Source of the DNA: an uncultured Lachnospiraceae bacterium
GTDB lineage: Bacteria; Bacillota; Clostridia; Lachnospirales; Lachnospiraceae
Reading direction: 5' to 3'
Length of the DNA: 44,840 nucleotides
Assembly: GCA_905235345.1 (NCBI GenBank)
Contig: CAJOLO010000001.1
Location: 1 to 44,840, forward strand
In this document: positions 3,137 through 36,013 of the stretch, one piece after another
How positions within the stretch are numbered: position 1 is the stretch's first letter
Layout: every line of letters begins with the position of its first letter
The notes under the pieces: model-generated
Databases searched by the model: none
Told to the model about the DNA's origin: nothing
What the model saw: the letters and a program-made list of their open reading frames with translations, nothing else
Translations under genes and position numbers: made by a program

Positions 3137-3169
3137 GTTGCACTTTTGTTGCACTTTGCATTGTATAAT
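3137..3169 (+). promoter_or_regulatory. Motif copy P1: GTTGCAC(3137-3143)-4bp-GTTGCAC(3148-3154)-9bp-TATAAT(3164-3169). Candidate activator-dependent promoter of the pilin/T4SS operon.
   Basis: Read directly from the sequence. The same geometry recurs at 15250, 34394 and 35981. It lies about 150 nt upstream of ATG 3319. Confidence 0.65.
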
Positions 3170-3318
3170 ACATACATAAGCTGTAATGAATGTGATATAT
3201 CAGTTATTTAGAATTCTCCAGAGGGATTATCCAGACATTACGGACGAAACATAATGTAATGAGGGGCGGCGGATATCCCTCGAATCAATCTATAATTCAT
3301 ATTAAGGAGGAAAGCGTT

Positions 3319-3747
3319 ATGAAGAAAATGATGAAGAAATTGGAAAGCGCTAAGGGACTTAAGGTTATGAAGGTGTGTTCATTGACACTTGTAGCAGCAC
3401 TCACGGTACTCGCGTACAGCGGAGTAGCATTTGCCGCTCAGCAGGGCGCAGATCTTACTACTGTGGTTAATCCTGTTGTCGGTCTTATTAATTCTCTGAT
3501 CAATCCGTTACTTCTTCTTGTGGGTGCAGGTGGTGGTGTATATGCCATCATTCTTGGTTTTAAGTATGCAACGGCAGAAGAGCCACAGGAGAGAGAGAAG
3601 CGCAAGCAGGCGATTAAGACCTTCCTGATCGGATATGTACTCATTTTCGTACTTATGGTTGTATTGAAACTTGCCACACCTGCACTTGAAACATGGATGA
3701 CTAATTCTACTGCTGGAACTGTTACAACAACAGAGGCTGCACAATAG
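3319..3747 (+). CDS. VirB2/TrbC-like pilin-type small membrane protein (142 aa)
   Basis: ORF track 3259. AAGGAGG at 3304-3310 favours ATG 3319. Signal peptide with an AFA-AQ cleavage site, then two hydrophobic helices separated by the charged loop EEPQEREKRKQ. It sits first in the T4SS gene block. Confidence 0.55.
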   Translation: MKKMMKKLESAKGLKVMKVCSLTLVAALTVLAYSGVAFAAQQGADLTTVVNPVVGLINSLINPLLLLVGAGGGVYAIILGFKYATAEEPQEREKRKQAIKTFLIGYVLIFVLMVVLKLATPALETWMTNSTAGTVTTTEAAQ

Positions 3748-3782
3748 GAGTAGTAATTACAATTGAAGAAAACATATACTAC

Positions 3783-3810
3783 ATTGGTCAGGGATTAATC
3801 TCTGACCAAT
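3783..3810 (+). terminator. Near-perfect 14-bp-arm inverted repeat (ATTGGTCAGGGATT/AATCTCTGACCAAT) after the pilin gene. Possible partial terminator or attenuator.
   Basis: Palindrome seen directly, with one mismatch. There is no U-tract after it, so any termination is probably partial. Confidence 0.4.
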
Positions 3811-4013
3811 GAGTAGTATATGGCATACTCTATATACTATTCGTGGAATATGACACGATAATTATGTCATCTGCTCTTAGAGGTCAATTAGTATAAAGTA
3901 ATTATTGTAAATGTTGCCTGATTGTACCTGTTGTGATAAGGCTTACTATGATGGTAACGCCCGGGATATGTGACAGCTAAGCGGAGATAACAGATGTTCG
4001 GAGGTAATCATAT

Positions 4014-6038
4014 ATGAAGACATGGAAGAAGATTATAATGTACATAATCATATTCATACTTATATCAGGAACGGTGGGATTCTTTATTCGTTTATTTCCT
4101 GATATGTTAACTTCGGCATTGCAGGGACAGGAGAGTAAGATTGACTTCTCATTACTACTGTCAGCGAAGACATGGCTGTATGGTGCAGGTGCAGGTTTCA
4201 TTGTTGTGATTATATGGATGCTTTCCGGTAACCATCTCGACCACATGATAACAGATTCCAATGGAAGTCTGCTCGGCAAGAAGGGTGAGGTTGACAGGGT
4301 GGAGGGATCTCTTGAGAACAGCCGTTTTCTTACAGAAAAGGAGAGAGATAAGTATTTTCCCGAACATCTATACAGTGAGCTGAATAAGGTTGAGAAGGAT
4401 GGTATCCCCGTAAGGGCGGTACTTAACAATAAAAAGATGTTGGAGGTCAACTTCCTGCCGGGCGCACATTCACTTATAATCGGCGCTACCGGTTCCGGTA
4501 AAACAACCACATTTATCAACCCTATGATACAGCTTCTTGCATCCACATCAGCGGGAAGCTCTATGATCATGACGGACCCTAAGGGAGAGCTTTTTGATCT
4601 GCATTCCCAGTATCTTACGGAGCGTGGTTATAAGGTGCTTCTTTTAGACCTGCGTGATACATATTCATCTTCAAGGTGGAATCCGTTAGACGGAATATGG
4701 GATATGTATCAGGACTATGTGGAGGCAGGCAAAGACATCAGGATGCACAAAGACAGTATGGCTGACTATCCGGACCTTAAGAGAATGGATGGTGAGGCAG
4801 AACCGGGAAGTACATGGGTTGAGTGGAGAGGGAAGGCTTATGCGGATCTTTCCCACTGTCAGGATGATGTGTCAGTAACAAGGCAGAGATATTACGATGA
4901 GATGTACGAGGATCTGAACGATCTGGTATCCGTTATCTGTCCGATTGAGAATGAGAAGGATCCTGTATGGGAGAAGGGTGCCCGTTCCATCATTATGAGT
5001 ACATGTCTTGCCATGCTTGAGGATTCTGAGGATGAAAGACTTGGTATGACCAAAGATAAGTTCAACTTCTTCAATATCAATAAGGCACTCACCAATTCAG
5101 AGAATGATTTTGCCGCATTAAAGGATTATTTTGAGGGCAGGAGCAAGCTGTCTCAGGCTTATACCCTTTCAAGGCAGGTGCTTTCTGCGGCAGATACAAC
5201 ACTATCTTCGTACATGTCCATAACATTTGATAAGCTTAATATGTTCAATGACAGGGGACTGTGTGGTCTTACCTCGGCAACGGATGTTGAGGCTGAGAAG
5301 TTCGCAGAACAGCCGACGGCACTCTTTATGAAGATTCCCGATGAGAAGGACACAAGGCACGGACTTGCGGCTGTATTTATCCTCTGTATGTATAAAGCAC
5401 TGATCAAAGTGGCGTCGGCAAGAGAGGATCTGTCACTGCCCCGTAATGTATATTTCATCCTTGATGAGTTCGGTAATATGCCTAAGATAGAGAAGTTCGA
5501 CAAGATGATCACTGTCGGACGTTCCAGAAAGATATGGTTTAACATGGTGGTACAGTCCTATTCACAGCTTAATAATGTTTATGGTGAAAAGGTAGCGGAT
5601 ATAGTGAAGTCTAACTGTGGTATGAAGATGTTCATCGGTTCTAATGATATCGGAACCTGTGAGGAGTTCTCGAAGCTTTGCGGTAATATGACGGTTCGTA
5701 CTACGTCCACGTCATCATCTATCGGAGCTAAAGCGGGCGAGATGAATCTGTCTTCCCAGACACAGGTCAGACCTCTTATATATCCGTCTGAGCTGCAGAT
5801 GCTTAACAATAAGGAGAGTACAGGTAATGCGATAATTGTTACATTCGGCAATTATCCGTTAAAGACAAAATATACACCAAGTTATTTATGCCCTTACTAT
5901 AAGATGGGACGAATGAACATGGATGAACTTAGAAGTCATATGTTCAGAGCTGACGAGGTGTACTATGATCTTGATGAGAGAAATGATATTGTGCTCGGCA
6001 AGAGTGACGAAGATGATGGCGAATATGAGGCATCGTGA
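4014..6038 (+). CDS. virD4: Type IV coupling protein, VirD4/TraG family ATPase
   Basis: GGAGG RBS at 4000-4004. N-terminal TM helices, Walker A IIGATGSGKTT, Walker B YFILDEFGNMP, and the VVQSYSQL..YG motif typical of TraG/VirD4. Confidence 0.9.
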   Translation: MKTWKKIIMYIIIFILISGTVGFFIRLFPDMLTSALQGQESKIDFSLLLSAKTWLYGAGAGFIVVIIWMLSGNHLDHMITDSNGSLLGKKGEVDRVEGSLENSRFLTEKERDKYFPEHLYSELNKVEKDGIPVRAVLNNKKMLEVNFLPGAHSLIIGATGSGKTTTFINPMIQLLASTSAGSSMIMTDPKGELFDLHSQYLTERGYKVLLLDLRDTYSSSRWNPLDGIWDMYQDYVEAGKDIRMHKDSMADYPDLKRMDGEAEPGSTWVEWRGKAYADLSHCQDDVSVTRQRYYDEMYEDLNDLVSVICPIENEKDPVWEKGARSIIMSTCLAMLEDSEDERLGMTKDKFNFFNINKALTNSENDFAALKDYFEGRSKLSQAYTLSRQVLSAADTTLSSYMSITFDKLNMFNDRGLCGLTSATDVEAEKFAEQPTALFMKIPDEKDTRHGLAAVFILCMYKALIKVASAREDLSLPRNVYFILDEFGNMPKIEKFDKMITVGRSRKIWFNMVVQSYSQLNNVYGEKVADIVKSNCGMKMFIGSNDIGTCEEFSKLCGNMTVRTTSTSSSIGAKAGEMNLSSQTQVRPLIYPSELQMLNNKESTGNAIIVTFGNYPLKTKYTPSYLCPYYKMGRMNMDELRSHMFRADEVYYDLDERNDIVLGKSDEDDGEYEAS

Positions 6039-6060
6039 TTATGTGTGATAGGAGTTTTCA

Positions 6061-7113
6061 ATGAGAAGAAAGATATCAGCAGGTTTGAAATTGAATATGG
6101 CTGTAATGTTTACTGCAGGTATTGTTATCTTATGGGTGTCCTATTGTATCAGTACTCCTTTGACGGTACATGCTGTTGGCCTTGAAGACTCGGAGACAGT
6201 CGACATAGACGTTTCCACGACGGAAGCGGATGCAACTGAGTCGGATTTTGATTATGAAGGTCCAATAGATATTATCACCCGAGAACCGATCCCGGAGAAT
6301 GGTGATCAGGATATTACCCAGAGAGTCAATATATCAGATGGTTCCGTCTATGACAGGGCAACCGGATACTTTGTGTACGCTGTTGATAACGGTTCGGTGA
6401 GTATCAGTGTGGCGGATGGCATGATGGTAACCGGAGATGTAATGCTTGCCAGGAGTGAGAATGCTAATGTAAGACTGTATAAGGATGGGGAGCCTCTGGA
6501 TGAATTACCGGGACTTATTAATTCTCCGGGTTCCTATGCTATTGTAAGCGGTGACGACGAAAGTAATGGGCAGATTATGGGATTTCGGGTGCTTAGTGAG
6601 ATTACGGGAGCAGTTAACCAGTATAGTCTTCCTAAGGGCTTCAGTGTAAGAAGCGTGGTGATCAATGGTGAAGACGCTGTGTTTGACTACGGTGTTGTGG
6701 ATATGACAGCCGAGGGGAAATACGATATCAATTATATATGCTCCGATAATGGCATTTCATATTACTTGCGTGTGACGGTGGATCACACTCCGCCACAGGT
6801 GACATTTGAAGGTCTTGATGACAATAACAGAGCCAAGGGTCCGGTTACAATAACCGGACTTGAGGAGGGAGATACCGTATCCGTTATATCAGGCAGTACG
6901 GTTAAGAAATTGAACGCCAATTCACAGATCGTGGAAAGTGGTAATTACCGTGTTGTGGTATCTGATTTGGCCGGCAATTATATTGAGAAGGAATTCAAGA
7001 TAATGGTATATCTTAATCTGCAGGCATGGATGCTGTTTGGACTTTTGCTTCTCATCATAGTCGGATTGGCAGTTGCACTGGTAATTACAAGAAAAAGACT
7101 GAGGGTAAGGTAG
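6061..7113 (+). CDS. Bitopic surface protein with an N-terminal signal/anchor, an Ig-like domain and a C-terminal TM plus basic tail
   Basis: AGGAG RBS at 6050-6054. N-terminal hydrophobic segment, GNYRVVVSDLAGNYIEKEFKI (an Ig-like AGN motif), and a C-terminal helix followed by TRKRLRVR. No LPXTG. Confidence 0.6.
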   Translation: MRRKISAGLKLNMAVMFTAGIVILWVSYCISTPLTVHAVGLEDSETVDIDVSTTEADATESDFDYEGPIDIITREPIPENGDQDITQRVNISDGSVYDRATGYFVYAVDNGSVSISVADGMMVTGDVMLARSENANVRLYKDGEPLDELPGLINSPGSYAIVSGDDESNGQIMGFRVLSEITGAVNQYSLPKGFSVRSVVINGEDAVFDYGVVDMTAEGKYDINYICSDNGISYYLRVTVDHTPPQVTFEGLDDNNRAKGPVTITGLEEGDTVSVISGSTVKKLNANSQIVESGNYRVVVSDLAGNYIEKEFKIMVYLNLQAWMLFGLLLLIIVGLAVALVITRKRLRVR

Positions 7114-7203
7114 AAGGATTTGTCAATCCGTAAAGTAATATAGATTTTTCAAGACATGGATACCGGAATAAAGCAACAGGCATTACAGAATAGGAGAACG
7201 CTT

Positions 7204-10200
7204 ATGAATACATTATTTTTTTCAATGCCGTATCTGATTGATATCGGCGGGGCAATTGAAGATTTTTTTCAGGAATTAATAGAGAATTATGTATTCGCAA
7301 TATTCTATTATATTGAGATTGCAATGTTATATGTCCTGAAACTTCTTGAGGATATTATGCTTATCTTTACAGGTGAGGCTCCGGTTGTGTATAACGGCGA
7401 AGAAAACTCCCTGCTTAATGTGTTCTTCAGCCATGATTCCGTAAGAGGTGTATATATGGGAATCGGAATGGTGGGAATCATATTCGCATTTGCCTTTGCT
7501 ATTGTGTCGGTTATAAGGAAGATGTTTGATTCAAGAGGCAAATATCAGAGCCTTACATTGGGTGCGATATTGGGCAATCTGTTAAAAAGTATTCTTCTCA
7601 TATTTGGCATGAATGCAATCCTTCTCGTATCGATCAATGCGACGAACATCCTTCTTCAGGCGGTAAATGATTCCTTTATATTGTCGAATGATCTTGTCAC
7701 AGGTGCAGGTACGCCTATAGAATTCACGGATGAGCAGTATGCCGCTATGGGAAGGATATTGAATACAATCGGTAATTATTCGCTGAATCCGTCTTATCGT
7801 TCCAGATACAATCTGAATGCCTGCTACAATGATATAAGAACGGATCTTAAGTATCTTGGAGACCAGGGGGTGTTCAGATACCATTATGAATCTTATGATG
7901 AGAATGATAATGAGATCATTACATGGCAGAGTCTTATGGAGGAGTTAGGCACTGCTTATGATTATAATAAAGAGACTACATTAGATACTTATGATGACGG
8001 TATTACCAATGCTATATTGGATTGTATGGAGATCATAAAACAGAATCCCAATATCAGGGTGCTCAAGAGCTATCAGGGAACAACGCATGAGTACACCGGA
8101 AGGGTATCACTTGACAGGATCATGTTTCTGGTAGGAACCATGGGAACCGTCAATACTGCGGCTGCGAGAAATGATGCATATAACAGGGATCCTAATTTCT
8201 ATGATAATATCAGAGCTCCGTTCTATTATGGATCTAAGGATATGTACAGTTTCAGTCAGGTAAGAGAGGTATTCTCGGTAAGTCCTCTTAAGATGAATTA
8301 TGTGATTGTATTTATAAGCACCTATGAGATTGCAATGGAGATGATGATTGTAATAGTGACCTGCGGTGTAAGAATATTCAATCTTCTTGCACTCTATCTG
8401 GTAGCACCACTGGCAATTGCTACGATGCCTATGGATGACGGTGCAAAGTTCAAACAGTGGACGACCGCATTCGTTGTTCAGTTGCTCAGTGTGCTGGGTA
8501 TGGTAATTGCCATAAGGCTTTTCATATTGTTGCTCCCTATCATATGGAGTCCTGCACTATCGGTTGGTGATGCAGGCGTTGCGTTGGAAGATTGGGATGT
8601 ATCAAGCACAGAAGCTACACTTAATTTAGTCAATAAGTTACTGAATCTTCTTCTTACGATGATACTTAAGATTGTTCTTACATATACGGCTGTTCAGGCT
8701 ATCAATAAGGTGAATGGTATATTTACGGGCATTCTTGCGGACAACGCCGGAATGCAGGCCATTACAGCAGGTGATATGAGAAAAGAATTCGCTGAAACAG
8801 GCGTAGGTAGGTTCATGAATGCACATAAGCCACTTGGTGGAACCAAACAACAAAGTCAGGAGAAGAGACCGGTTAATGGCGGTGGGAAAGGTGGCGAAGG
8901 TAGTGAATCCGAAGCTGTTGATAAAACATCAAAGGGTATGCAGAAGGCTAATGCTAATGTTGCCAAACCTGGAGGCGGTAAAGATGGAGCAGATAAGAGA
9001 GAAAAGGATATGAAGATGCTTGATGCCGCTGTTAAACATGGTCAGGAGACTGGTCGCAGGATGGACGGCAAGAAGCTAAGTAAGGATGGTAAAGATCTTG
9101 CGATCATGAAGGGCACTCTGGAGCATATGCAGAAAGACGGCATGAATATGAAGGATGCCAAGGCTGCGGCTGAGAAGGATTACAAAGCTGACAAGGAGAA
9201 GAAGGATGCTGAGAATAAGTTCCATCAGAAAGAACTCAAAGCAGGACCTCCTGACAGGAATAAGGCTCAGAAGCAGGCAGCCAAGATGAAGGATTATGAT
9301 TATAAGGCGATGAAGAGAGATCTTGCATTCATGAAAGAAAATGGTTATCATGCGAATGGAGATGCGATTAAGCCGGGCGAACGGGCTCAGATGGAAGAGA
9401 CACTGAAGGCTTACGAGAATCAACAACGTGGAGACAGAGGTTCGTCGTCTGGAGGTTCGCAAACCGGTGATAGTACACCGGGTAGTCAGAACAGTCAGGT
9501 GGGCGGAACCACAGTTGCCGGAGTAGTCGGAGCAGCAACGAAGGGAGCCGAAGCCACAGTGAATGAAAGCGGAAGCGATACTGGACATATTCTTGAAAAT
9601 CAACGTAGTCAGGTGGATGGAAAAGAAAGTGACGGAAGTGGTTTGCAAGAAACGGGTGCGAATACAATTCCGAAGAGTCAGAGTGTTCAGGTAGGAGGAA
9701 ACAGTTCATTTGAAACAAGCACGGGTGCGAATACGATTCCGGAGAATCAGAGTGTTCAGGTAGGAGGAAACAGTTCATTTGAAACAAGCACGGGTGTGAA
9801 TACGATTCCGGAGAGTCAGAGTGCACAGGTAGGAGGAAACAGTTCATTTGAAACAAGCACGGGTGCGAATACGATTCCGGAGAATCAGAGTGCACAGGTA
9901 GGAGGAAACAGTTCATTTGAAACAAGCACGGGTGCGAATACGATTCCGGAGAGTCAGAGTGCACAGGTAGGAGGAAACAGTTCATATGAAACGAGCACGG
10001 GTGCGAATACGATTCCGGAGAATCAGAGTGTTCAGGTAGGAGGAAACAGTTCATATGAAACAAGCACGGGTGCGAACACGATTCCGGAGAATCAGAGTGT
10101 TCAGGTAGGAGGAAACAGTTCATTTGAAACAAGCACGGGTGCGAACACGATTCCGGAGAGTCAGAGTGTTCAGGCAGGCGAAAACAGTTCATATGAAACG

Positions 10201-10614: not shown

Positions 10615-10665
10615 AGGTAGGCGGCACTATACCGAATAATTTATACAGATAGGCAGGCAGAAGAT

Positions 10666-14820: not shown

Positions 14821-14917
14821 ATCTTGCAGGGGCTGATTAGTTGATTGATATTGTATAAAGAAACAAATACTATATAATTAATCTATATTGATTGATGAAT
14901 GGGAAGGAATGAAAAAA

Positions 14918-15220: not shown

Positions 15221-15249
15221 GAAACACTTGCCGCCGATTAAGCTATTGT

Positions 15250-17623: not shown

Positions 17624-17737
17624 TGGGTGGTCAGTAATGTATGCAGGTATAATATGCTGCATTTTACTTCACTTAAATGATAACTTGAAAGCGTATGGAT
17701 ACACGGATCCATGAAATGGGAATGGGGGAATGAAAGT

Positions 17738-25357: not shown

Positions 25358-25446
25358 GATATAGTGGAAACTGATTGTGCAACTTATGCGACACTATAAT
25401 TTAATGACAATGGGGAATACTATACAGGATTTAGGAGAAATATGAC

Positions 25447-26667: not shown

Positions 26668-26678
26668 TTTGGAAGGTG

Positions 26679-27812: not shown

Positions 27813-27928
27813 AGCCTGTGGGAATAGTAGAATGAGAAGTGGATGAAGCACATTGGCTTTAAAATGGATAGTTCACTGTGACATAACCTGTGGTAGTTAT
27901 TAAAGAGATTGGTACAAGGAGGAAAAGC

Positions 27929-28456
27929 ATGAGTGACGATATCAAATCAGAGGAAAGTTTTCATCTGGGAGACTTGGAAGAATTCAGCATTTCTGGTAAG
28001 ATTTCCGAAGGTACTGATGAAAGTATAGATTATACAATAAGTGAGGATGGCAGTTCCATTATCATAGACGCAGAGGATGCGAATATTGATGTAGTCCAGG
28101 AATTTGTGCGCGATAAGCTTATGGCATACGGCTGCGGGAATAAAGTTATGCTGCAGATAAGACTTGCGGTGGAGGAGATATTTGTCAATATTATTTCCTA
28201 TGCATACAGGCCCGAAATTGGTAAGGCTGAGGTGTCCTGTGAGGTTACGGAGGAGCCGCTTTCGGTGTGCATTCAGTTCATGGATTCAGGTAAGCCCTTT
28301 GACCCTTTGGCGGCTGATGAAGCTGATACATCAGGTGCTATGTTTCTGGAACGGGAGGGCGGCTTTGGGATACATTTGGTTAAGAATACCATGGATGATG
28401 TGAAGTATGAATATTGTGAAGGTAAGAATATTCTTACTGTTATGAAGAGGCTGTAG
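27929..28456 (+). CDS. RsbW/SpoIIAB-like anti-sigma-type Ser/Thr kinase (HATPase_c_2) with an acidic N-terminal extension of about 55 aa
   Basis: ORF track 27890 (GTG). AGGAGG at 27917-27922 favours ATG 27929. N-box EEIFVNIISYAY, DSGKPFDP, and GGFGIHLVKNTMDDV. Confidence 0.85.
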   Translation: MSDDIKSEESFHLGDLEEFSISGKISEGTDESIDYTISEDGSSIIIDAEDANIDVVQEFVRDKLMAYGCGNKVMLQIRLAVEEIFVNIISYAYRPEIGKAEVSCEVTEEPLSVCIQFMDSGKPFDPLAADEADTSGAMFLEREGGFGIHLVKNTMDDVKYEYCEGKNILTVMKRL

Positions 28457-28546
28457 AGACGGAAAGATATTATCAATTTTATTCTGTATGAAAACTGCAG
28501 TTGGTATTGGGACAGATAGAGATTTACAATATGGGGGAGTGGAAGA

Positions 28547-29524
28547 ATGAATACAAGAGTGATCAATGTAATTCCGGAGAGAGTGCTTGAAGGAATAGCT
28601 TTATGTGGTTATAAAAAAGTAGAACCGGAGGATCAGGCATTGTTTGATCCGTACTATGATAAAATGAATCATCCATGGTCAGGCTCCACAGAATTTCTTA
28701 ATTTTATAGCGTGGAGTGACACTCTTCCGGTTTATTTCAAGGAATCAGATGGCATGATAATAGGTTTGAGTTATGAATCTAATGAAGGAATGCTTGTGGG
28801 TATACCATTTATTGGGCATTATACAAATGAATCGGTTAAGCAGGTATTTGCTATAATGAAAAAAGATTTTGAAACGATTGGTGAGCCGTTAGTCATTATG
28901 GATGTAACAAAATGGATGCTTCCGTATTATGAGTCTGTTGATGGTTTTTCCTTCGATATTGAAGATAAAAGGGAGTATATGGAGTATATATATACCGCCA
29001 CCGATTTTGAGGCGGGGCTGGATAAGCAGGATGACCGATATCGATACAGGTATTTCATGCGCAAATTCGATTATGAGGTTGAAGAGATCAAGTCGAAGCA
29101 CAGAGATGAGATTGTAGGTTTTATGGAACGTATATGGTGTGGTGGCAAGACATGTAGTGAATGTCAGTTTGGGTGTATGGTAGAGGTTACAGACAGGGTT
29201 GTGTCCGCATTTGACGAGCTGGAGGTTAACGGATTGCTGGTAAGGGTAGACGGAGAAATTGCGGGCTTTTGTATAGTTACAAAGCGTATGGGGCAGGCAA
29301 TATATCAATTCAAGCATGCCATTAATCGTATCAAGGGGATTAATGAATATATGCTTCGTGAGTGCTATGAGCGTTATCTTAAAGGGGTTGATATTGTCAA
29401 TTATACCGAGGATTGTGGGATAGAAAGTCTTAGAAGATATAAGATGAATCTGGCAACGGATTATTCTCTTTTGTCAAGACTTACTCTAATCCAATCAGAT
29501 AATAAAATGAAAGTACATAATTAA
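28547..29524 (+). CDS. DUF2156-like protein (fold of the C-terminal domain of lysyl-phosphatidylglycerol synthase / GNAT-like)
   Basis: The ORF itself is clear. Family assignment comes from pattern memory only: EFLNFIAWSD, IEDKREYMEYIYTATDF, RYRYRYFMRKFDYE. It needs an HMM check. Confidence 0.5.
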   Translation: MNTRVINVIPERVLEGIALCGYKKVEPEDQALFDPYYDKMNHPWSGSTEFLNFIAWSDTLPVYFKESDGMIIGLSYESNEGMLVGIPFIGHYTNESVKQVFAIMKKDFETIGEPLVIMDVTKWMLPYYESVDGFSFDIEDKREYMEYIYTATDFEAGLDKQDDRYRYRYFMRKFDYEVEEIKSKHRDEIVGFMERIWCGGKTCSECQFGCMVEVTDRVVSAFDELEVNGLLVRVDGEIAGFCIVTKRMGQAIYQFKHAINRIKGINEYMLRECYERYLKGVDIVNYTEDCGIESLRRYKMNLATDYSLLSRLTLIQSDNKMKVHN

Positions 29525-29560
29525 TGCCGCTTGTTGCGGCAAAGATGAGGGCTGCGGATA

Positions 29561-32500
29561 ATGAAACATAACCATATGGCAGATAATGAGAATATAGAAA
29601 ATCAAAACATAGAAAAGCATGGGGATCAAAGCTTAGGAAATAAGAATACACAAGGTCAAGAGGATTGCATTTTGGAAGATCATAACATTGAGAAGAAGAG
29701 TATGGATATGATGAAGGAGAAGAAGAGAAAACGCCGAATAATATTCAGTGTTTTGCTTTTGATTTTTTCCATTATTGTAGTAATCCAGTTACATAATTGG
29801 ATTAATGTTAATCCATTTAGACCATTTGAATTAAGCAATGTATATTGTTCGACTATCGATAAATACGGCAATATGTATGTGATAGATGACAGTAACTCAA
29901 GACTTTTGAAGATTGACTCTGAAGGGAGGCTGCTGTGGAAGAAGAAAGCCTCCGGGAAAACCTTTGAAAACGCTTATAATATATCATGTGATGACGAAGG
30001 CAATATATATATTCAGGATGTACGCATTGACAGTGGGGTCAGGCTTGCTTCAGAGAGCGTTGTCAAATTCTCAACCGATGGAAAGTTTTTAGGAGTATTG
30101 AGAACATATAATTATATGGGAGAAAATAAGTCATCAGAGGTCACTATGCGCGAGTCGATTGTGGGACTTTCCGGACAGGAGCATTCTGTCATGTATACGC
30201 GGAAGGGCAAAGATGCCTTATATGAAATAGACGAAGAACAGTCGATATGTGAGACATATCCTTTTCCTGATGCTTTTGACACTGTATTATCCTGTGCCTA
30301 TGATAATGGCAGAATATGGTATACCACTTATGATGGAAGATTACTTGAGTACGTGGATGGAGTTAATGATAAGCTTCTCTATGATTGTGAGGACGAAGAA
30401 GGAAGTATCATAAGAAGTGTAAGCTACGGTGATGGAAAGTTATATGTTGCTGATATAGGTTTCAGGGATATATTGGTTGTAGATTTAGATACAGGAGATC
30501 AGTTCCGTCTTGCGTTGGAGGAGGATGTAAAAGAGCGTGAGATTTCCTACATGGTAAATGCAGACAATGGTTTGGTTTCGACATCATCTTATTCAGTATC
30601 CTTATGGAACGGGGATAAATATACCAGATATTATGAAGTGGAATTAAGCAATAAATGGAAGATATTAACTATTCTTCTTATGTTTTCGTTACTGGTGCTG
30701 GCAATAGATGTAGTTATAGATATTGTACTATTTGTCTTTTATATAATTAAGATATCAAGTTATCAGCTAAAGGTAATTCTGGGTATAATTGCAGGTGTTA
30801 TTGCAATTGGAGCACTTTTTTTGGGTTCGTTGTATCCGCAGTTCAGCAAAGAACTGCAAAGCACAGTGTTTTCCAGAGAGAAACTTGCAGCCACAGTTAC
30901 TGCTGAAGCAGTGCCTACGGAAGCGTTTCTAGCGATTACTAAACCATCAGATTACATGAATGAAGACTATCTGGCTGTAAAGAGGGCGGTTGACAATATC
31001 TTCCTGCATGATTCGGATGCCTCTAAGGATCTGTATTGTGAAATGTACCGTATAATTGATGGAACTATAACATTAACCTATTCCATTGAAAACGGATGTG
31101 CTGTGTATCCTTATGATTGGGATTATGAAGGCTCGGATGAGCAGAAGATTATAACCACCGGGGTAGGAAAGGAAGTTGTTTATATAGGCAGTTCGGGGAG
31201 CTATATATATGTATTGGAGCCTATGAGGGATGATAGTGGGGAAGTTATCGGACTTATAGAGGTGGGTAAAGATCTTGCAGGTTTCATGGCAGAGAGTAAC
31301 AAAATGCTAATAAAACTTATCATTAATATTGTCGCTATTACAATTGTTATTATTATGTTTGTGATAGAGCTGTTCTACTTTATAGAAGGAAAGAGAGAAA
31401 GAGAGGCTGTTAATGGTGATAGTGCTGCTTACGAAGATAACAGTAGCATGGAGAAGGCTTTGAAAACAACCGGTGGGACATCTGCCGGAATTATAAGATT
31501 TTTGTCATTCCTTATATACTTTTTCACTAATCTTTCTACGGCTATTCTTCCTATATATGCCTTGCGCATAGCAGGTAAGAGCGGCTTTACATTCGGACTA
31601 TCCAAAGAGGTGTTATCTGCCGTACCAATATCTGCAGAGGTTATTATGGGTGCAGTTTGCTCATTTTTCGGAAGTAAGGTTATTAAGGCTTTCGGTGCTA
31701 AAAAGACTGCATTTGTCAGTGCTGTATTGATTACGGCAGGTCTGGCACTTAGAGTAGTTCCTGACATATGGGTGCTTTCTCTGGCACAGGCAATATTAGG
31801 AGCTGGATGGGGAACACTTTTGCTCATGGTAAACATACTTATTACCGCGCTGCCTGAGGAGCGCAGAGACACAGGCTTTGCCTATTTCAGTGCAGCAGGC
31901 TTCAGTGGTGTTAATTGTGGTATATTGTTTGGAGGTTTCATTATTCAGTGGGTGTCTTATCCGGTTATGTTTATTATAGTGGCTGCACTAAGTATTACAA
32001 TTATATTTGCAGTTAGGAGTTACATACCTGATTCGCTTGTTCATGAAGAGACTATGGAAGATACTGAGGAAGAAAAAGCTGCTTCAATGCCTGTTATAAA
32101 GCTTATATGTAATCCGCGAATTCTCGGGTTTATCTTTATGATGCTTATACCTGCAGCTATTGTAGGATATTATCTTAATTACCTGTATCCTATTCTTGGT
32201 GAGAAATGGGGACTTTCGGAGACATATATAGGTTATTCATATCTGATAGACGGTCTGTTTGTGGTATTATTTGGAGGATTATTGACTAAGGTATTTTCGG
32301 GAAAGAAAAGACTGGGACTGGCAATTTCATCATTTATATATGCGGTAGCATTTGTTGTTGTGGTAGTATTCAATAATATACCTGCACTGTTTGCCTCTCT
32401 TGCTATTGTGGGAATATCTGACGGCTTTGGCAATCCGTTGATGACAGGTTATTTTACTGATCTTGATATAGTTGAGAAATATGGGTATGACAGGGCATTT

Positions 32501-32704
32501 GGTGTATATAGTTTGTTTGAAAATATTGCACAGACAGTGGGCTCATTTGTATTCTCATATGTGCTTATAGTAGGTGTTAAAAGTGGACTTATGATTATTG
32601 CTGTGGCACTTTCTGTGCTCACTATGTTATTCCTTCTAGGAGGGATTTTTGATCGAAGGAAGAAAACAGAACAAGTTAAAATTGCAGGAGATAAATCGTT
32701 ATGA
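29561..32704 (+). CDS. 1047-aa fusion protein: N-terminal TM, NHL-like beta-propeller, TM pair, Cache/PDC-like domain, TM, then a C-terminal 12-TM MFS-like transporter
   Basis: YVIDDSNSRLLKIDSEGRLLWKK and LYVADIGFRDILVVD resemble NHL blades. GEVIGLIEVGKDL is Cache-like. The last roughly 400 aa form an MFS-like helix bundle. The stop overlaps the next start (ATGA at 32701-32704). Confidence 0.7.
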   Translation: MKHNHMADNENIENQNIEKHGDQSLGNKNTQGQEDCILEDHNIEKKSMDMMKEKKRKRRIIFSVLLLIFSIIVVIQLHNWINVNPFRPFELSNVYCSTIDKYGNMYVIDDSNSRLLKIDSEGRLLWKKKASGKTFENAYNISCDDEGNIYIQDVRIDSGVRLASESVVKFSTDGKFLGVLRTYNYMGENKSSEVTMRESIVGLSGQEHSVMYTRKGKDALYEIDEEQSICETYPFPDAFDTVLSCAYDNGRIWYTTYDGRLLEYVDGVNDKLLYDCEDEEGSIIRSVSYGDGKLYVADIGFRDILVVDLDTGDQFRLALEEDVKEREISYMVNADNGLVSTSSYSVSLWNGDKYTRYYEVELSNKWKILTILLMFSLLVLAIDVVIDIVLFVFYIIKISSYQLKVILGIIAGVIAIGALFLGSLYPQFSKELQSTVFSREKLAATVTAEAVPTEAFLAITKPSDYMNEDYLAVKRAVDNIFLHDSDASKDLYCEMYRIIDGTITLTYSIENGCAVYPYDWDYEGSDEQKIITTGVGKEVVYIGSSGSYIYVLEPMRDDSGEVIGLIEVGKDLAGFMAESNKMLIKLIINIVAITIVIIMFVIELFYFIEGKREREAVNGDSAAYEDNSSMEKALKTTGGTSAGIIRFLSFLIYFFTNLSTAILPIYALRIAGKSGFTFGLSKEVLSAVPISAEVIMGAVCSFFGSKVIKAFGAKKTAFVSAVLITAGLALRVVPDIWVLSLAQAILGAGWGTLLLMVNILITALPEERRDTGFAYFSAAGFSGVNCGILFGGFIIQWVSYPVMFIIVAALSITIIFAVRSYIPDSLVHEETMEDTEEEKAASMPVIKLICNPRILGFIFMMLIPAAIVGYYLNYLYPILGEKWGLSETYIGYSYLIDGLFVVLFGGLLTKVFSGKKRLGLAISSFIYAVAFVVVVVFNNIPALFASLAIVGISDGFGNPLMTGYFTDLDIVEKYGYDRAFGVYSLFENIAQTVGSFVFSYVLIVGVKSGLMIIAVALSVLTMLFLLGGIFDRRKKTEQVKIAGDKSL

Positions 32705-34356
32705 AAAAAAGAAAATCAATACTTGGTAAAAAACTTCTCAGGCTTACGGTCATTGACATGTGTATAATAGCCATACTTTTTCTTTCCGGAAGTTCATATA
32801 TATATATTGAAGAGATGAATTCTGTTTATAAGAAAAAGAGTTCAGAGGTTGCTTTTTCTGTTGCAGATATGGTTGATGGAGATTTTATACGTGATCTTTC
32901 TGAGATGATTGATACAGATGAATATAAAGATGTATTCGGTAAGGCTTCATATGAGAATCAGCAGCCGATCATAGACTACCTTAAAGAGAAAGGCATGTAT
33001 GAAAGATATATTGAATTAAATGAAATGATCGAGAATATAAGAAATGATATGAATATTGCATATCTGTATATTGAAGTCTTTCGTGACGGTAAGGCACAAT
33101 ATATTGTTGAACCCTTTGCCGGTTTCTATGCCCTTGGCTATGAAGAGGAACTGTTGGATGAATTTAGCGGAATCTATGGAAATGAGCATATTGAAGGGGA
33201 TGTGACCCGTAGTGAATTCGGCTGGCTGTCTACAGGAGGAGAACCTGTATATGATTCGGAAGGCAATGCTGTTGCAGTAGTTTTAGTGGATATTGACATG
33301 AACGAGATCATGAACAAACGTTATGTATTTATTATCATAATGCTTGTGGAACTTATTGTAGTAATTACGTTGGCACAGGTAATGATGTCTAAGCTGTTGA
33401 CAAGGGATGTTATCAATCCGATTAAGGCACTTACCGATAATGCACAGTCCTTCGGTACAGGGGAAAACGGTTTTTCCAAGGAGAATATTATTGATCTTGA
33501 TATCAAAAGCGGAGACGAGATCGAGGATATGTATCATATGTTGCGCTTCATGCAGGAGAGCATTATCGACTATATGGATAACCTTCAGTCTGTAACTGCG
33601 GAACGTGAACGTATCGGTGCGGAGGTAGAGATAGCTACTACTATCCAGCAGAGTATGCTTGAACATGTAGACCCTGATTTCACAGGAAAGAAGGAGTATG
33701 ATCTGTTTGCATCCATGACGCCGGCAAGGGAAGTAGGCGGAGATTTCTACGATTTTTTCATGACAGATGATGACCATATTGCCATATTGATTGCCGATGT
33801 GTCGGATAAGGGTGTGGGCTCGGCATTTTTTATGGCCATAGCCAAGACACTGATCAAGACATATTCAAAGACGGGCGGAACACCATCGGAGATAATTACC
33901 AATGTTGACAGACATATATCGGAGAAGAACGAGGCAGGGCTCTTTGTTACGGTATGGTTTGCGATAATTGATCTTGTGAGTGGACATGTGGAAGCCTGCA
34001 ATGCAGGACACGATTATCCTGCAATTATGAAAAATGGTGAGGAGTTCGTCATAGAGAAGACACCTCATGGACCGCCGGTAGCATTTATACCGGGAATGGA
34101 TTTTGTTGGTACGGAGTTCGACTTAAAGCCGGGAGACCGGATATTCTTATATACGGACGGCTTAAATGAAGCCAAGCGCGGCGATGGTGAGCGTTTTGGT
34201 ACGGACAGAATGCTGGAGGTACTGAATGCCCACAAGGATGCGGATAATGAGGAAATGATTCAGCTTATGCGTAAGGCAGTGGATGAGTTTGCCGGGGATG
34301 AGCCGCAGTTTGATGATATGACAATGCTTGGATTCACATTCAAGGGCAGAGGATAG
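32701..34356 (+). CDS. Membrane-bound PP2C/SpoIIE-family phosphatase (RsbU-like) with an extracytoplasmic Cache-like domain and a HAMP linker
   Basis: N-terminal TM, sensor domain and a second TM. HAMP-like INPIKALTDNAQ. PP2C motifs REVGGDFYDF, ADVSDKGVGSA, YTDGLNEA and DDMTMLGF. Confidence 0.9.
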   Translation: MKKRKSILGKKLLRLTVIDMCIIAILFLSGSSYIYIEEMNSVYKKKSSEVAFSVADMVDGDFIRDLSEMIDTDEYKDVFGKASYENQQPIIDYLKEKGMYERYIELNEMIENIRNDMNIAYLYIEVFRDGKAQYIVEPFAGFYALGYEEELLDEFSGIYGNEHIEGDVTRSEFGWLSTGGEPVYDSEGNAVAVVLVDIDMNEIMNKRYVFIIIMLVELIVVITLAQVMMSKLLTRDVINPIKALTDNAQSFGTGENGFSKENIIDLDIKSGDEIEDMYHMLRFMQESIIDYMDNLQSVTAERERIGAEVEIATTIQQSMLEHVDPDFTGKKEYDLFASMTPAREVGGDFYDFFMTDDDHIAILIADVSDKGVGSAFFMAIAKTLIKTYSKTGGTPSEIITNVDRHISEKNEAGLFVTVWFAIIDLVSGHVEACNAGHDYPAIMKNGEEFVIEKTPHGPPVAFIPGMDFVGTEFDLKPGDRIFLYTDGLNEAKRGDGERFGTDRMLEVLNAHKDADNEEMIQLMRKAVDEFAGDEPQFDDMTMLGFTFKGRG

Positions 34357-34426: not shown

Positions 34427-34500
34427 AATATTAAGTCAATTGATGATAAGATGGAAGAAGTAACTGACGTGTTTTGAAATTATATGCAGGAGGTATGCGT

Positions 34501-35895
34501 ATGCCTGGATCTGATAATGAGAAGGATATAGAGATGGTTTCCGAGTCTAAGGAAGAGATGACCTCCGAGGCAGAAGCAAAGAGCGAAGAGCCGGAAGCGA
34601 CCTCCGAGGTAGAAGCAGTATCTGAAGATGAGCAGGATCAGATAGAAACAGAGCAGAAAGAGGCGATTTCCGATAAGAATAGCGAGCTTCTAGAGCGTAT
34701 GAGCCGGATGGAAGCTGAGATGGAAGCGGAGAAGGAAAGGCTCAAGAAGGAACGCCTTGCCTTTCAGGAGGAGCGCAAGCGCTTTGAGGAGGAGAAGAAG
34801 GCCTTTGAAGAAATGAATGTTAATGTGGCTTTTAACAAACAGGCAGAGCCGGATAAGAATGCTCAATCGGCAGTTGCGAATCAAAAAGCTTCCGATATGA
34901 CGGGCAAACCTGCCGACAAACAGTCTGCAAAACCTGAGAAAGAGGGCGTAGTAACCAGGAAAGGCAATTATAATGAGATGAGTATGGCGGATGATTCCAT
35001 TACATTGAAGCAGGCGGATCAGGCGGCAAAGCTTAAGATTACCGCAGATATGTCTGTGCTTGCCCAAAAGTCATCCAGGGAATTCAAGAAGATGCAGGCA
35101 GCAGTTGACAGGTTTGATAAATTCATGAAGGGTATGGGAGGCAGGACAACATTTTCCGCTGAAGAGCTGGAGAAGTACGATAAGCTGTCTCATGATGTTT
35201 ATAAGGCATCGGATGAATATCTGAAGAAGAAAGAACAGGATATGGAAAAGCGTGCTCCCGGTAAGGACGGCCAGAAGAAGCAATCTGACTATGAATATTC
35301 CAGAATTAAGGCGGCAGAGGAGATCAGAGAGAGCGTAGAGCAGATGCGGAAGGAGATGCTTGAGAAGGCATTCAACGACAAGTTAGAGGAAATGAACAAA
35401 CGCTGTCAGGATCAGCTTAAGAATCTTGAAAACAGCAGAAATAATATGGCGTCTGATAAAGATATGGATCCGGCAAGAAGGGAGTCTCGCCTCGCGGATA
35501 ATATGGCGCATACCATATATTATGGCAATTGCATGAAACAGTTGTCATCCAAGGGCGAACTACAGATGAAGCCGGGGGAAAGCATGAATGCGGCTGTTAA
35601 CAGATTGAATACGGCTATCATTCCCACGAAGAATGAGATTGAGGAAATCAAAGCACATCCGGTTGCCAAGAGAATAGTAGATGCAGGTGTGAAGAATCTT
35701 TCCGAAGGAAAATCATTTACTATGAACGATATGGAAAAGACAATGAAGCAGGCAGCCATGAAGAAGGCTCCTGAGGTGAAGAAGGCAAAGGATATGAAAA
35801 GAGAGCAGGAAAGACAGATGGAGCAGGCAAGACAGAGGGAGGCAAGGCAGACGAGAAGAAAAGCGCCTGAGAAGAAGGCTCCGGCACGGACATAA
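34501..35895 (+). CDS. Signal-less Glu/Lys-rich coiled-coil protein (464 aa) with a strongly basic C-terminal tail. Candidate secretion substrate.
   Basis: ORF track 34474 (TTG). AGGAGG at 34488-34493 favours ATG 34501 (MPGSDNEK). EAEMEAEKERLKKERLAFQEERKRFEEEKKAFEE is coiled-coil-like. The tail ends ...REARQTRRKAPEKKAPART. Confidence 0.75.
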   Translation: MPGSDNEKDIEMVSESKEEMTSEAEAKSEEPEATSEVEAVSEDEQDQIETEQKEAISDKNSELLERMSRMEAEMEAEKERLKKERLAFQEERKRFEEEKKAFEEMNVNVAFNKQAEPDKNAQSAVANQKASDMTGKPADKQSAKPEKEGVVTRKGNYNEMSMADDSITLKQADQAAKLKITADMSVLAQKSSREFKKMQAAVDRFDKFMKGMGGRTTFSAEELEKYDKLSHDVYKASDEYLKKKEQDMEKRAPGKDGQKKQSDYEYSRIKAAEEIRESVEQMRKEMLEKAFNDKLEEMNKRCQDQLKNLENSRNNMASDKDMDPARRESRLADNMAHTIYYGNCMKQLSSKGELQMKPGESMNAAVNRLNTAIIPTKNEIEEIKAHPVAKRIVDAGVKNLSEGKSFTMNDMEKTMKQAAMKKAPEVKKAKDMKREQERQMEQARQREARQTRRKAPEKKAPART

Positions 35896-35918
35896 TTTTA
35901 TATTAATATTATTTCAAT

Positions 35919-35955
35919 AAAACGGTTGAATTGGATTCAATCGTTTTATTATTTA
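35919..35955 (+). terminator. Rho-independent terminator (AAAACGGTTGAAT-tgg-ATTCAATCGTTTT followed by a T-rich tail)
   Basis: 13-bp stem with one G-U pair, a 3-nt loop, then ATTATTTAT. It lies 24 nt after the stop at 35895. Confidence 0.7.
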
Positions 35956-35980
35956 TAAAATGAGATTATGTTATTTTTTT

Positions 35981-36013
35981 GTTGCACATTTGTAGCGCTT
36001 AGGGTGATAAAAT
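35981..36013 (+). promoter_or_regulatory. Motif copy P4: GTTGCAC(35981-35987)-4bp-GTAGCGC(35992-35998)-9bp-TAAAAT(36008-36013), preceded by a T7 tract
   Basis: Read directly from the sequence. It lies about 105 nt upstream of ATG 36119. Confidence 0.6.

Follow-up and report, generated by a model that had tools for sequence, protein, structure and literature searches.

The window analysed here, a stretch of 44,840 nucleotides from an uncultured Lachnospiraceae bacterium (GCA_905235345.1, contig CAJOLO010000001.1), opens with three genes on the + strand. The first, unk260 (114..896, +), encodes a polytopic membrane protein of 260 aa whose family was not assigned. It is followed by a sensor histidine kinase (937..2226, +), with about seven transmembrane segments preceding His_kinase (PF06580) and HATPase_c domains, and by a response regulator of 272 aa (2296..3114, +), of which the kinase is the presumed phosphodonor and which we propose as the activator of the four sites described below. 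The kinase gene adjoins the regulator gene in essentially all related loci, and unk260, conserved between or beside the two, is the only other gene that always neighbors the regulator; it is possibly an accessory sensor component.

Downstream, the genes can be grouped into four probable transcription units, all on the + strand. Unit 1 (3259..15220), whose gene order is supported by synteny among related loci, would comprise genes for a type IV secretion system (T4SS) pilin, a VirD4 coupling protein, unknown proteins of 350 and 1152 aa, a VirB4-like ATPase and a STAS protein. The predicted unit 2 (15437..34356) encodes proteins of 728 and 2548 aa, two unknowns, an RsbW-like kinase, an LPG_synthase_C protein, an MFS fusion and a SpoIIE/PP2C phosphatase. 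Unit 3 (34474..35895) encodes a 473-aa protein, likely starting at ATG 34501 behind GGAGG, and is ended by an intrinsic terminator (35919..35955, +; −18.5 kcal/mol, z = −4.6, with 0/200 shuffles as stable) that lies immediately upstream of the fourth site, an order of terminator and motif also present in a related locus (L051). Unit 4, putatively 36119..44592, holds genes for unknown proteins of 193, 993 and 1038 aa and for an ABC_ATPase (PF09818) protein. A known plasmid system was rejected for this cluster, since its VirD4 shares no more than 29% identity with that of any plasmid, and a literature search on this T4SS locus returned nothing relevant.

Four predicted promoters, P1 to P4, accompany these units on the + strand; the scores given are from the position weight matrix (PWM) described below. 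P1 (3137..3169; 39.7 bits) reads GTTGCAC-TTTT-GTTGCAC-TTTGCATTG-TATAAT, that is, a distal heptamer (3137-3143), a spacer (3144-3147), a proximal heptamer (3148-3154), a 9-bp gap and the −10 hexamer TATAAT (3164-3169); its transcription start site (TSS) is predicted at about 3176 (CA at 3175-3176), and it probably drives the pilin/T4SS operon. P2 (15250..15282; 26.8 bits), GTTGCAC-ATTT-GTAGCGC-TTTATATGA-TATGTT, has heptamers at 15250-15256 and 15261-15267, a TGA extended −10 at 15274-15276 and TATGTT at 15277-15282, and with a predicted TSS at about 15289 it would drive the operon of the 728-aa and 2548-aa proteins. P3 (34394..34426; 32.7 bits), GATGCAC-TTTT-GTTGCAC-TTTGCGTGC-TACAAT, contains heptamers at 34394-34400 (GATGCAC) and 34405-34411, TGC at 34418-34420 and TACAAT at 34421-34426; its TSS is predicted at about 34433, and its likely target is the gene for the 473-aa protein, which is Lys/Glu-rich. 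P4 (35981..36013; 35.3 bits), GTTGCAC-ATTT-GTAGCGC-TTAGGGTGA-TAAAAT, has heptamers at 35981-35987 and 35992-35998, TGA at 36005-36007 and TAAAAT at 36008-36013, with a predicted TSS at about 36020, and presumably drives the operon 36119-44592.

A preliminary description of this DNA had claimed a shared layout of heptamer, 4 bp, heptamer, 9 bp and a −10-like hexamer, and direct reading found it exact at all four sites, the hexamer being TAnnnT. Its statement that neither repeat stands at a normal −35 spacing held as well, the distances to the hexamer being 9 or 20 bp, with no −35 element at 16–18 bp. For this reason P1–P4 are absent from the list produced by a generic −35/−10 promoter scan of the window; as the count of promoter-like sequences in that scan was at chance level, it is uninformative on the four sites beyond the absent −35. 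An Rfam search of the whole window matched no RNA family and so gave no sign of a riboswitch layer in the leaders.

All four sites are intergenic, lie 47–154 nt upstream of a + strand ORF and share the orientation of the downstream gene, and an A occupies hexamer position +7 in 4/4. With up to two mismatches allowed, the 18-nt repeat pattern matched P1–P4 alone in the window, always on the + strand, and gave 0 matches in 100 dinucleotide-preserving shuffles. An independent PWM, built from 40 sites of other genomes with the window left out of training, scored P1–P4 at 26.8–39.7 bits, compared with 4.3 for the next best window position and a maximum of 9.5 over 30 simulated windows. Identity among the sites was 0.65–0.82 within the motif and 0.24–0.40 in the flanking 60 bp to each side, which excludes their having been copied as part of a longer repeat.

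These values bear on the idea that the sites are non-regulatory, arising by chance, from duplicated sequence or, at P2 and P4, as weak terminator-like hairpins. A terminator scan does list 15248-15267, where eight pairs, three of them G-T, form a stem ahead of a T-rich tail; P1 and P3, on the other hand, are pure direct repeats unable to pair, P4 has no T-tail, and about 50 loci conserve the direct repeat and the −10 without compensatory pairing. Together with the zero shuffle matches, the recovery by the independent PWM and the unrelated flanks, this leaves the non-regulatory reading with hardly any probability.

The same site architecture was found in approximately 50 related rumen Lachnospiraceae loci; because these were gathered by homology to the response regulator (RR), the joint presence of RR and motif in them is biased as a test of their association. 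Cultured isolates that carry the locus include Lachnospiraceae AC2029, C6A11, NE2001, YSB2008 and LC2019 and Eubacterium ruminantium FB3002. From the related loci, 67 distinct tandem sites were defined without reference to any −10 element. TAnnnT was present at exactly 9 bp in 63/67 of these, compared with only 4/177 look-alike candidates without the TT spacer, and 63 of the 67 were on the gene strand. Further features were conserved although they had not been selected for, namely TG at −15/−14 (a TGn extended −10, present at most sites), CA/A at hexamer +6/+7 and an upstream A-tract. These comparative observations support the view that sites of the P1–P4 type are real promoters with a fixed repeat-to-hexamer distance.

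With regard to the individual sites, one lies upstream of the pilin gene in 32/32 pilin-bearing loci (30 found by script, the other two, L002 and L004, by eye), irrespective of which gene precedes, RR or kinase. In 8 loci, genes for homologues of the 728-aa protein are preceded by sites of the GCRC type, counterparts of P2. A metagenome scan centered on the 473-aa protein gave solely L050 and L051; neither has an orthologous copy of P3, since the 473-aa homologue gene there comes after another ORF, and both keep P4, with the terminator-plus-motif arrangement downstream of that homologue. Relatives also have three-repeat versions of the motif. A single perfect copy was found on a contig classified as viral, of which the approximately 8 kb examined contained no RR, and as that scan gave no second match, the motif is not a common phage element. 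The proposed division into two subtypes, P1/P3 and P2/P4, applies within the window and does not extend to a general feature, because the proximal repeat grades continuously in other genomes (GTTGCGC, GTTATGC, GTTATAC).

The comparison with other loci also speaks to a σ54-type −24/−12 promoter, TGGCAC-N5-TTGCA, from which P1 and P3 (TTGCAC-N5-TTGCA) are one mismatch away with an identical 11-bp element offset. Against it, the near-invariant GG of the −24 element is replaced by TG at every site, P2 and P4 carry TAGCG at the ‘−12’ position, and relatives have GTGACT or GTACACA repeats ahead of the same −10; moreover, a conserved extended −10 at 9 bp downstream would be superfluous for σ54, and no AAA+ enhancer-binding protein or rpoN occurs among the window genes. 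A σ54 promoter is therefore extremely improbable.

The receiver domain (REC, residues 1–118) of the response regulator was readily identified (PF00072, E 5.8e-21), and in its family the active-site residues D9, D55, T83 and K103 are invariant, with D10 in at least 90% of sequences. Pfam found REC alone in the window protein, with no DNA-binding domain even at E ≤ 10, and single-sequence Pfam, NCBIfam and PDB searches with its C-terminal half gave no DNA-binding domain either; this domain was resolved solely by profile and structure comparisons. Trans_reg_C (PF00486) matched weakly in 19/23 family members (best E 2.3e-4) and not in the window protein, and profile matches to AfsR, SaeR and EmbR were weak (E 0.07–0.4). 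The full-length model aligned with the OmpR/PhoB regulators VanR, DrrB, PhoP, KdpE and RpaA over about 232 columns, covering both domains. For the model of the C-terminal domain (pTM 0.80), the top six structural matches were AfsR (8hvr/8k60) and EmbR (2ff4/2fez), with E values of 8.5e-6 to 2e-4, TMq of 0.61–0.70 and approximately 165 aligned columns, followed by the PhoB-type DNA-binding domains of PhoB, AdeR and KdpE with about 90 columns. The SARP-type winged helix assigned in the preliminary description was thus borne out as a fold (residues ~130–225, recognition helix ~186–206), whereas the BTA domain is mostly absent: only residues ~226–267 follow the wing, about 45 residues with three short BTA-like helices (230–267), and Pfam found no BTAD in the window regulator or 23 relatives. 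With its BTA domain truncated, the regulator is not a full SARP. Members of the family consistently share this short C-terminus, and among the 603 clusters formed at 50% identity (E ≤ 1e-30) a length of about 265 aa prevails. The acidic α2–α3 loop is conserved in the family, natural fusions of REC with two tandem domains occur in it, and several homologues bear the JGI label ‘two-component SAPR family response regulator’.

Two paralogous regulators, RR1 and RR2, differ in their recognition helices and in the heptamers that accompany them. RR1 (α3 ALKKQLRVF.SSLR) pairs with GTTGCRC, while RR2 paralogues (α3 QKQ.DV..RSLR) co-occur with GTTGGAC (11/12 loci vs. 3/29; Fisher p = 1.3e-6, by script); L039, the twelfth RR2 locus, which the ORF filter of the script excluded, also has a GTTGGAC site. 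This paralogue-to-heptamer assignment is not airtight, because L016 and L024 carry GTTGGAC sites with no RR2 paralogue in the DNA examined. More distant relatives have GTGACT, GTTGCAG or GTACACA repeats in the same layout, directly after RR genes. Autoregulation of RR1 through the motif found no support: the two-component operon of the window has TGTATAAT at 54-61 with no heptamers upstream, and RR1 genes in loci without RR2 mostly abut the upstream gene.

On these grounds, P1–P4 are very probably docking sites of the neighboring response regulator, which would switch on the T4SS and cargo genes. A search of the 22 ORFs gave no further DNA-binding domain, in agreement with the earlier claim that the regulator is the only DNA-binding protein recognized in the window. 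Another factor might nevertheless read the motif, either an unrecognized alternative sigma factor or another DNA-binding protein, perhaps the target of the STAS/RsbW-like/SpoIIE partner switch: the window contains a complete partner-switching set with no sigma factor identified there, and more than 10 of its ORFs are without family assignment. Set against this, TGn-TAnnnT is an element of the kind used by the housekeeping sigma factor, the repeats stand at distances (9 or 20 bp) that would not serve for a −35, and a one-turn direct repeat indicates a tandem dimer and not a sigma element. Furthermore, the motif accompanies the RR family even in distant loci without T4SS and partner-switching genes, the heptamer changing alongside the recognition helix, and unk260, the sole other constant neighbor, is a polytopic membrane protein. 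We regard the involvement of another factor as improbable.

The mechanism that we favor, and consider likely, is that P1–P4 are extended −10 promoters of the housekeeping sigma factor (σA) that lack a −35 hexamer and depend for activation on the phosphorylated regulator, bound as a head-to-tail dimer. Each promoter would combine TGn-TAnnnT with two direct-repeat units of 11 bp (core T-GTTGCRC) spanning about −40 to −19. The membrane kinase (937-2226) would phosphorylate D55 of the regulator, upon which the receiver domains would dimerize and the two SARP/OmpR-type winged-helix domains would bind head to tail on one face of the DNA, each α3 (~186–206) entering the major groove of one repeat. 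The bound pair may then stand in for the absent −35 through a contact with RNA polymerase, in which the acidic α2–α3 loop would probably meet sigma region 4, as in PhoB and AfsR; this contact cannot equal that of SARPs, because most of the BTA domain is missing. The outcome of such a circuit from kinase to regulator to four operons would be that the pilin/T4SS machinery is induced in coordination with the giant-protein operon, the 473-aa protein and the distal operon.

The same regulator could instead bind the repeats and repress, with a dimer at −40 to −19 occluding RNA polymerase from a constitutive extended −10 promoter until a signal arrives. Extended −10 promoters can function without a −35, TGn is present at most sites, and the binding position overlaps the polymerase footprint. 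However, the repeat-to-hexamer distance is exact to the base pair in 63/67 sites, which counts against occlusion because it is expected for a protein–polymerase contact and not required for occlusion. PhoB, with the same position and geometry, is a class II activator. The geometry is also that of the class II activator AfsR, of the same fold, whose residues E76/E77 contact sigma R4 and whose BTA domain contacts sigma R4 and the α-CTD (PMC10936776), and the acidic α2–α3 loop is kept here. Repression thus appears rather unlikely.

Beyond activation of P1–P4 by the regulator, we tentatively entertain a broader reading, in which we place limited confidence and which combines a family, a specificity code and a hierarchy. 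A large ‘REC + mini-SARP’ family, of hundreds of 50%-identity clusters mainly in gut and rumen Firmicutes, might replace the −35 in a SARP-like manner without the BTA ‘chair’, the receiver dimerizing instead. Specificity might be set by α3 residues ~190, 194 and 198 against heptamer positions 4–7, and in rumen Lachnospiraceae a cascade from HK2-RR2 through GTTGGAC to RR1 and GTTGCRC might switch on a T4SS lineage that is not of plasmid type and has giant cargo proteins.

The analysis provides a testable regulon and binding-site model for a catalogued response-regulator architecture without a characterized member, and it indicates how a distinct, chromosomally conserved T4SS cluster of rumen Lachnospiraceae is likely switched on, as four coordinated units. 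The clean layout (22-bp box, extended −10, fixed spacing) and the natural heptamer variants make heptamer-swap and helix-swap experiments straightforward. The mechanism is familiar and the regulator family is uncharacterized; if true, the model would add a hybrid domain arrangement to class II activation of the SARP/PhoB type, an incremental step with no new principle.

Among known systems, LytTR response regulators are the usual partners of PF06580 kinases and use 9-bp repeats spaced by 12 bp. A LytTR regulator was rejected here, given that the output domain is a winged helix, the repeats are 7 bp at 11-bp periodicity and the likeness to LytR/BtsR is confined to the receiver. The COG3947 ‘SAPR family’ (REC + wHTH + BTAD), a JGI name, similarly joins REC to a SARP-like DNA-binding domain, whereas the family of the window regulator stops about 45 residues past the winged helix with no BTAD detected; our literature search found no paper on the targets of any REC-SARP/COG3947-type regulator. 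PhoB/OmpR regulators share REC plus a C-terminal winged helix and differ in that Trans_reg_C is barely detectable here by sequence, BTA-like helices are added after the wing, the receiver is nearest the LytR/BtsR class, and the kinase is of the LytS/YesM type (PF06580), not the EnvZ/PhoR type. The pho box is bound head to tail upon phosphorylation, comprises two 11-bp units (7 conserved plus 4 A/T-rich positions) and replaces the −35 at about 10 bp from the −10, with class II activation through sigma region 4. Because pho boxes fit too, the geometry of P1–P4 points to the OmpR/SARP winged-helix class and not to SARPs uniquely.

SARPs (AfsR with the afs box, ActII-ORF4, DnrI and RedD, as well as EmbR) are unlike the window regulator in having no N-terminal phospho-receiver and a BTA domain of seven helices and about 150 residues, compared with about 45 residues here, where the sigma-R4 ‘chair’ and the α-CTD surface are absent. 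They also differ in host (actinomycetes versus a Firmicute), in targets (antibiotic biosynthesis versus T4SS genes) and in having a weak −10 versus the strong extended −10 found here. According to the SARP rule, periodicity is 11 bp and a gap of 8 bp separates the 3′ repeat from the −10; the AfsR box covers −40 to −19 (PMC10936776). Of the exact SARP-site geometry claimed at the outset, the 11-bp periodicity was found at all sites, while the gap, as the heptamers are defined, is 9 bp versus the published 8. Given a TSS 7 nt beyond the hexamer, the conserved 8-bp cores (T plus heptamer) would start at −40 and −29, in the AfsR register. The likeness therefore comprises the DNA-binding fold, of which SARPs are the best structural match, the acidic α2–α3 loop, and direct repeats of 11-bp periodicity that overlap the −35 region and leave 8–9 bp between the 3′ repeat and the −10, in a 22-bp box at −40 to −19 where each 11-bp unit has its conserved core in the first 8 bp.

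The four candidate promoter sites all lie on the plus strand, and re-reading of the sequence confirmed to the base both the positions given in the preliminary description and the layout of two 7-bp repeats (heptamers) 4 bp apart, followed by 9 bp and a -10-like hexamer. They read GTTGCAC-TTTT-GTTGCAC-TTTGCATTG-TATAAT (P1, 3137-3169), GTTGCAC-ATTT-GTAGCGC-TTTATATGA-TATGTT (P2, 15250-15282), GATGCAC-TTTT-GTTGCAC-TTTGCGTGC-TACAAT (P3, 34394-34426) and GTTGCAC-ATTT-GTAGCGC-TTAGGGTGA-TAAAAT (P4, 35981-36013), and each occupies an intergenic gap 5' of a plus-strand ORF. With up to two mismatches allowed, the 18-nt repeat pattern matched only these sites in the whole window, and none of 100 dinucleotide-preserving shuffles contained a match. 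Identity among the sites was 0.65-0.82 within the motif compared to 0.24-0.40 in the 60-bp flanks; since the likeness is confined to the motif, duplication of a longer repeat does not account for P1-P4. A PWM derived from 40 sites in other genomes picked out exactly P1-P4 in the window (26.8-39.7 bits, with 4.3 for the next best position and a null maximum of 9.5). A sigma-54 promoter reading of the repeats was ruled out on the invariant GG of such promoters, and a hairpin reading of P2 and P4 was also discarded, as nothing but direct repeats is present in P1, P3 and the orthologous sites.

According to the Pfam and NCBIfam annotation of the window, a two-component operon comes first, with genes for a 260-aa polytopic membrane protein without a family match (114-896), a histidine kinase (HK) with about seven TM segments, PF06580 and HATPase_c (937-2226), and the response regulator (RR; 2296-3114), in which the receiver (REC) is the sole recognised domain. 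This operon is preceded at 54-61 by TGTATAAT, an extended -10, and no heptamer repeats were found in the 53 bp upstream. P1 is followed by genes for a T4SS pilin (3259), a VirD4 coupling protein (4014), two unknowns (6061, 7156), a VirB4/TraG-like ATPase (10666) and, last before P2, a STAS protein (14888-15220). Between P2 and P3 are genes for a 728-aa unknown (15437), a 2548-aa protein (17711-25357), two unknowns (25447, 26676), an RsbW-like kinase with HATPase_c_2 (27890-28456), an LPG_synthase_C protein (28547), an MFS fusion (29561) and a SpoIIE/PP2C phosphatase (32701-34356), which has a long N-terminal region and whose gene directly precedes P3. P3 is followed by the gene for a 473-aa Lys/Glu-rich protein (34474), a strong terminator and then P4, after which three unknowns and a PF09818 ATPase are encoded (36119-44592). 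The P1 and P2 operons together hold a complete partner-switching set (the STAS anti-anti-sigma-like protein, the RsbW-like kinase and the SpoIIE/PP2C phosphatase); no sigma factor was recognisable in the window. The annotation gave no second DNA-binding domain in the window either, in agreement with the earlier statement that the regulator is the only recognised DNA-binding protein there. The 2548-aa protein, of which a homologue fragment is present in the related locus L040, showed a marginal PLAT/LH2 match (residues 1554-1646, E 2.8e-5) and no other assigned domain. Within the 1152-aa ORF, identical promoter-like strings (TTGAAA-N16-TACGAT) recur every 69 bp at 9710-9944, which points to a tandem repeat of 69 bp (23 residues) within the ORF itself.

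A scan of the genome collection with the regulator as query yielded 49 loci, mostly from rumen Lachnospiraceae, in which the motif family reappears in an unchanged layout. When tandem sites were defined without any -10 criterion, 63 of 67 distinct sites had TAnnnT after a gap of precisely 9 bp, other gaps being at background level, and 63 of the 67 were located on the gene strand. As a control, TAnnnT at +9 was present in 66 of 90 three-mismatch look-alikes with the TT spacer but in only 4 of 177 without it. Features that had played no part in site selection were counted across 61 distinct sites. T and G at -15/-14, as in an extended -10, occurred in 50 and 44 sites, respectively, and an A-tract lay 11-15 bp 5' of the distal repeat. 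C at 6 nt and A at 7 nt after the hexamer, which is initiation-like, were found in 31 and 40 sites, with the A at all four window sites. A T also preceded each heptamer, and the repeating unit is therefore (A/T)TTT-GTTGSRC, 11 bp with an 8-bp core. Since extended -10 promoters work without a -35 element, it is possible that the regulator represses P1-P4 instead of activating them; the base-pair-exact spacing between repeats and hexamer argues against this and for contact with the polymerase. With regard to genomic position, all 32 loci with a pilin gene have a site 5' of it, identified by script in 30 and by eye in two (L002 and L004), whether the preceding gene is that of the RR or of the HK. 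GCRC-type sites were also found 5' of the 728-aa homologues (8 loci) and of VirD4 (7 loci), and the P4 arrangement of terminator and motif is kept in two metagenome contigs, in which P3 was not found.

Several indirect lines of evidence agree in linking the regulator to this motif. GTTGCRC sites were always present alongside its orthologues (RR1; recognition helix alpha3 ALKKQLRVF.SSLR), a co-occurrence that is not an unbiased test because the loci were gathered via RR homology. A second paralogous HK-RR pair, whose regulator (RR2) has the alpha3 sequence QKQ.DV..RSLR, was found in 12 loci (L010, L012, L013, L020, L021, L023, L025, L027, L029, L030, L033 and L039), and the variant motif GTTGGAC-ATTT-GTTGGAC-N9-TAnnnT accompanies this second HK-RR(-RR) set, e.g., at 9155 and 13425 in L029. 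By script, GTTGGAC occurred in 11 of the 12 loci with the second pair, the twelfth being left out only by the script's ORF filter, compared to 3 of the 29 that lack it (Fisher p = 1.3e-6, with no correction for phylogeny); L016 and L024 carried the variant without an RR2 paralogue in the locus DNA examined. The frequent placement of GTTGGAC sites directly 5' of the gene for RR1 suggests a cascade of two tiers, from RR2 to RR1. Some GTTGGAC sites were doubled or had three heptamers with an 11-bp period (L027 9872-9900, L030 8807-8835, L020 7838/7870).

Furthermore, relatives of about 38% identity show the matching layout (a tandem unit of 11 bp, then 9 bp that include TGn, and a -10-like hexamer) immediately 3' of the RR gene with other heptamers, and their alpha3 sequences differ correspondingly. 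These heptamers are GTGACTN (L044 6100, L046 3140), GTGACAC (L043 ~10890, with the hexamer GACAAT, as opposed to TAnnnT in all others) and GTTGCAG (L045 10896) after the RR gene, and, right behind the stop codon of the RR, GTACACA/GTCATAT (L047, L048) and CCGCAGC/CCGACAC (L041). The ORF 3' of the motif in L047 and L048 begins MKYTKEQLEPIAKYLDKELEDELLEGVGAG and might encode a small protein of the leader-peptide type. A further sigma factor or another DNA-binding protein, possibly one connected with the partner-switching set, might instead read the motif; this reading is disfavoured by the housekeeping type of the -10, by the position of both repeats away from the -35 distance, and by the fact that the motif accompanies the RR family into loci without the T4SS cluster genes. 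Among 2.9 million viral contigs, the sole exact match to the extended motif was at 4961-4993 on the minus strand of IMGVR_UViG_3300021400_005384 (L052), about 70 nt 5' of the gene for a 116-aa Nif11-domain protein and with AAA_14 ATPase, PLD-nuclease, C5-methylase and ORF6N/Rha-like genes as neighbours; no regulator of this family was found in the ~8 kb of this contig that was covered.

Gene order is conserved across the related loci, with RR, membrane protein and HK followed by pilin, (728-aa homologue), VirD4, 350-aa, 1152-aa and VirB4. VirD4 is 80-91% identical in most rumen Lachnospiraceae loci (L002-L040) and at most 29% identical to any VirD4 among 72,556 plasmid records, and no relaxase was recognised in the window; the T4SS (3259-14820) thus looks like a distinct lineage. 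The 260-aa membrane protein was always beside the RR and HK genes.

Regarding the regulator itself, its receiver is intact as judged from 64 homologues, in which D9, D55, T83 and K103 never vary and D10 hardly does. The closest named receivers are BtsR and LytR, which fits with the PF06580-type kinase and points to a LytS/LytR-lineage signalling pair joined to a SARP-like output domain. The C-terminal 150 residues had no Pfam match. The AlphaFold model of the full-length protein (pLDDT 82) aligned with full-length OmpR/PhoB regulators over ~232 columns. For the C-terminal domain modelled alone (pTM 0.80), the six best PDB matches were to EmbR and to AfsR as part of its transcription-activation complex (E 8.5e-6 to 2.2e-4, TMq 0.61-0.70, ~165 columns), followed over ~90 columns by the effector domains of PhoB, AdeR, YycF, KdpE and SaeR. 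Sequence profiles gave weak matches, mostly to AfsR, SaeR, EmbR, KdpE, RpaA and VanR, along with a few unrelated chains; Trans_reg_C weakly matched 19 of 23 relatives and BTAD none of the 23. By these structure and profile comparisons, the output domain is a SARP-like winged helix, after which come no more than about three short helices. Such a short form is typical of a sizeable family (603 clusters at 50% identity, E <= 1e-30, most of ~265 aa). At least eight listed members (P0120-P0124, P0127, P0128 and P0133) carry two tandem copies of the C-terminal domain, the arrangement expected of a domain that works in adjacent pairs on direct repeats.

We infer that P1-P4 are probably promoters for the housekeeping sigma factor with an extended -10 and no -35, whose activity would depend on the phosphorylated regulator, bound as a head-to-tail dimer at -40 to -19, by class II activation of the PhoB/SARP type. 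This would place a distinct T4SS cluster, as predicted target, under a familiar regulatory design run by an uncharacterised regulator family. The reader's initial interpretation is thereby supported and refined with respect to the 9-bp gap, the geometry shared with PhoB, the truncated BTA domain, and the LytS/LytR lineage of kinase and receiver. The direct repeats bound by SARPs recur every 11 bp, the 3' one lying 8 bp away from the -10; in the AfsR box, one 11-bp unit spans -40 to -30 and a second -29 to -19, and the first 8 bp of each are contacted (PMC10936776). If transcription starts 7 nt after the hexamer, the 8-bp cores of the window sites begin at -40 and -29, as in the AfsR box. Hence, of the SARP geometry first proposed, the 11-bp periodicity was upheld, whereas the gap is 9 bp, not 8, and the geometry is common to PhoB-type sites. 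Likewise, AfsR and EmbR as best structural matches bear out the SARP-type winged helix, but the protein is not fully SARP-like: SARPs carry a seven-helix BTA domain after the winged helix (PMC10936776), in place of which this family has about three short helices. With the greater part of the BTA domain absent, the regulator probably touches RNAP more in the manner of PhoB than of AfsR, and the receiver presumably supplies the dimerisation done by the BTA/ODB interface in AfsR. In common with AfsR, whose E76/E77 of the alpha2-alpha3 loop contact sigma R4 and the beta' ZBD (PMC10936776), the family conserves an acidic loop (FEDREED-type) at this position.
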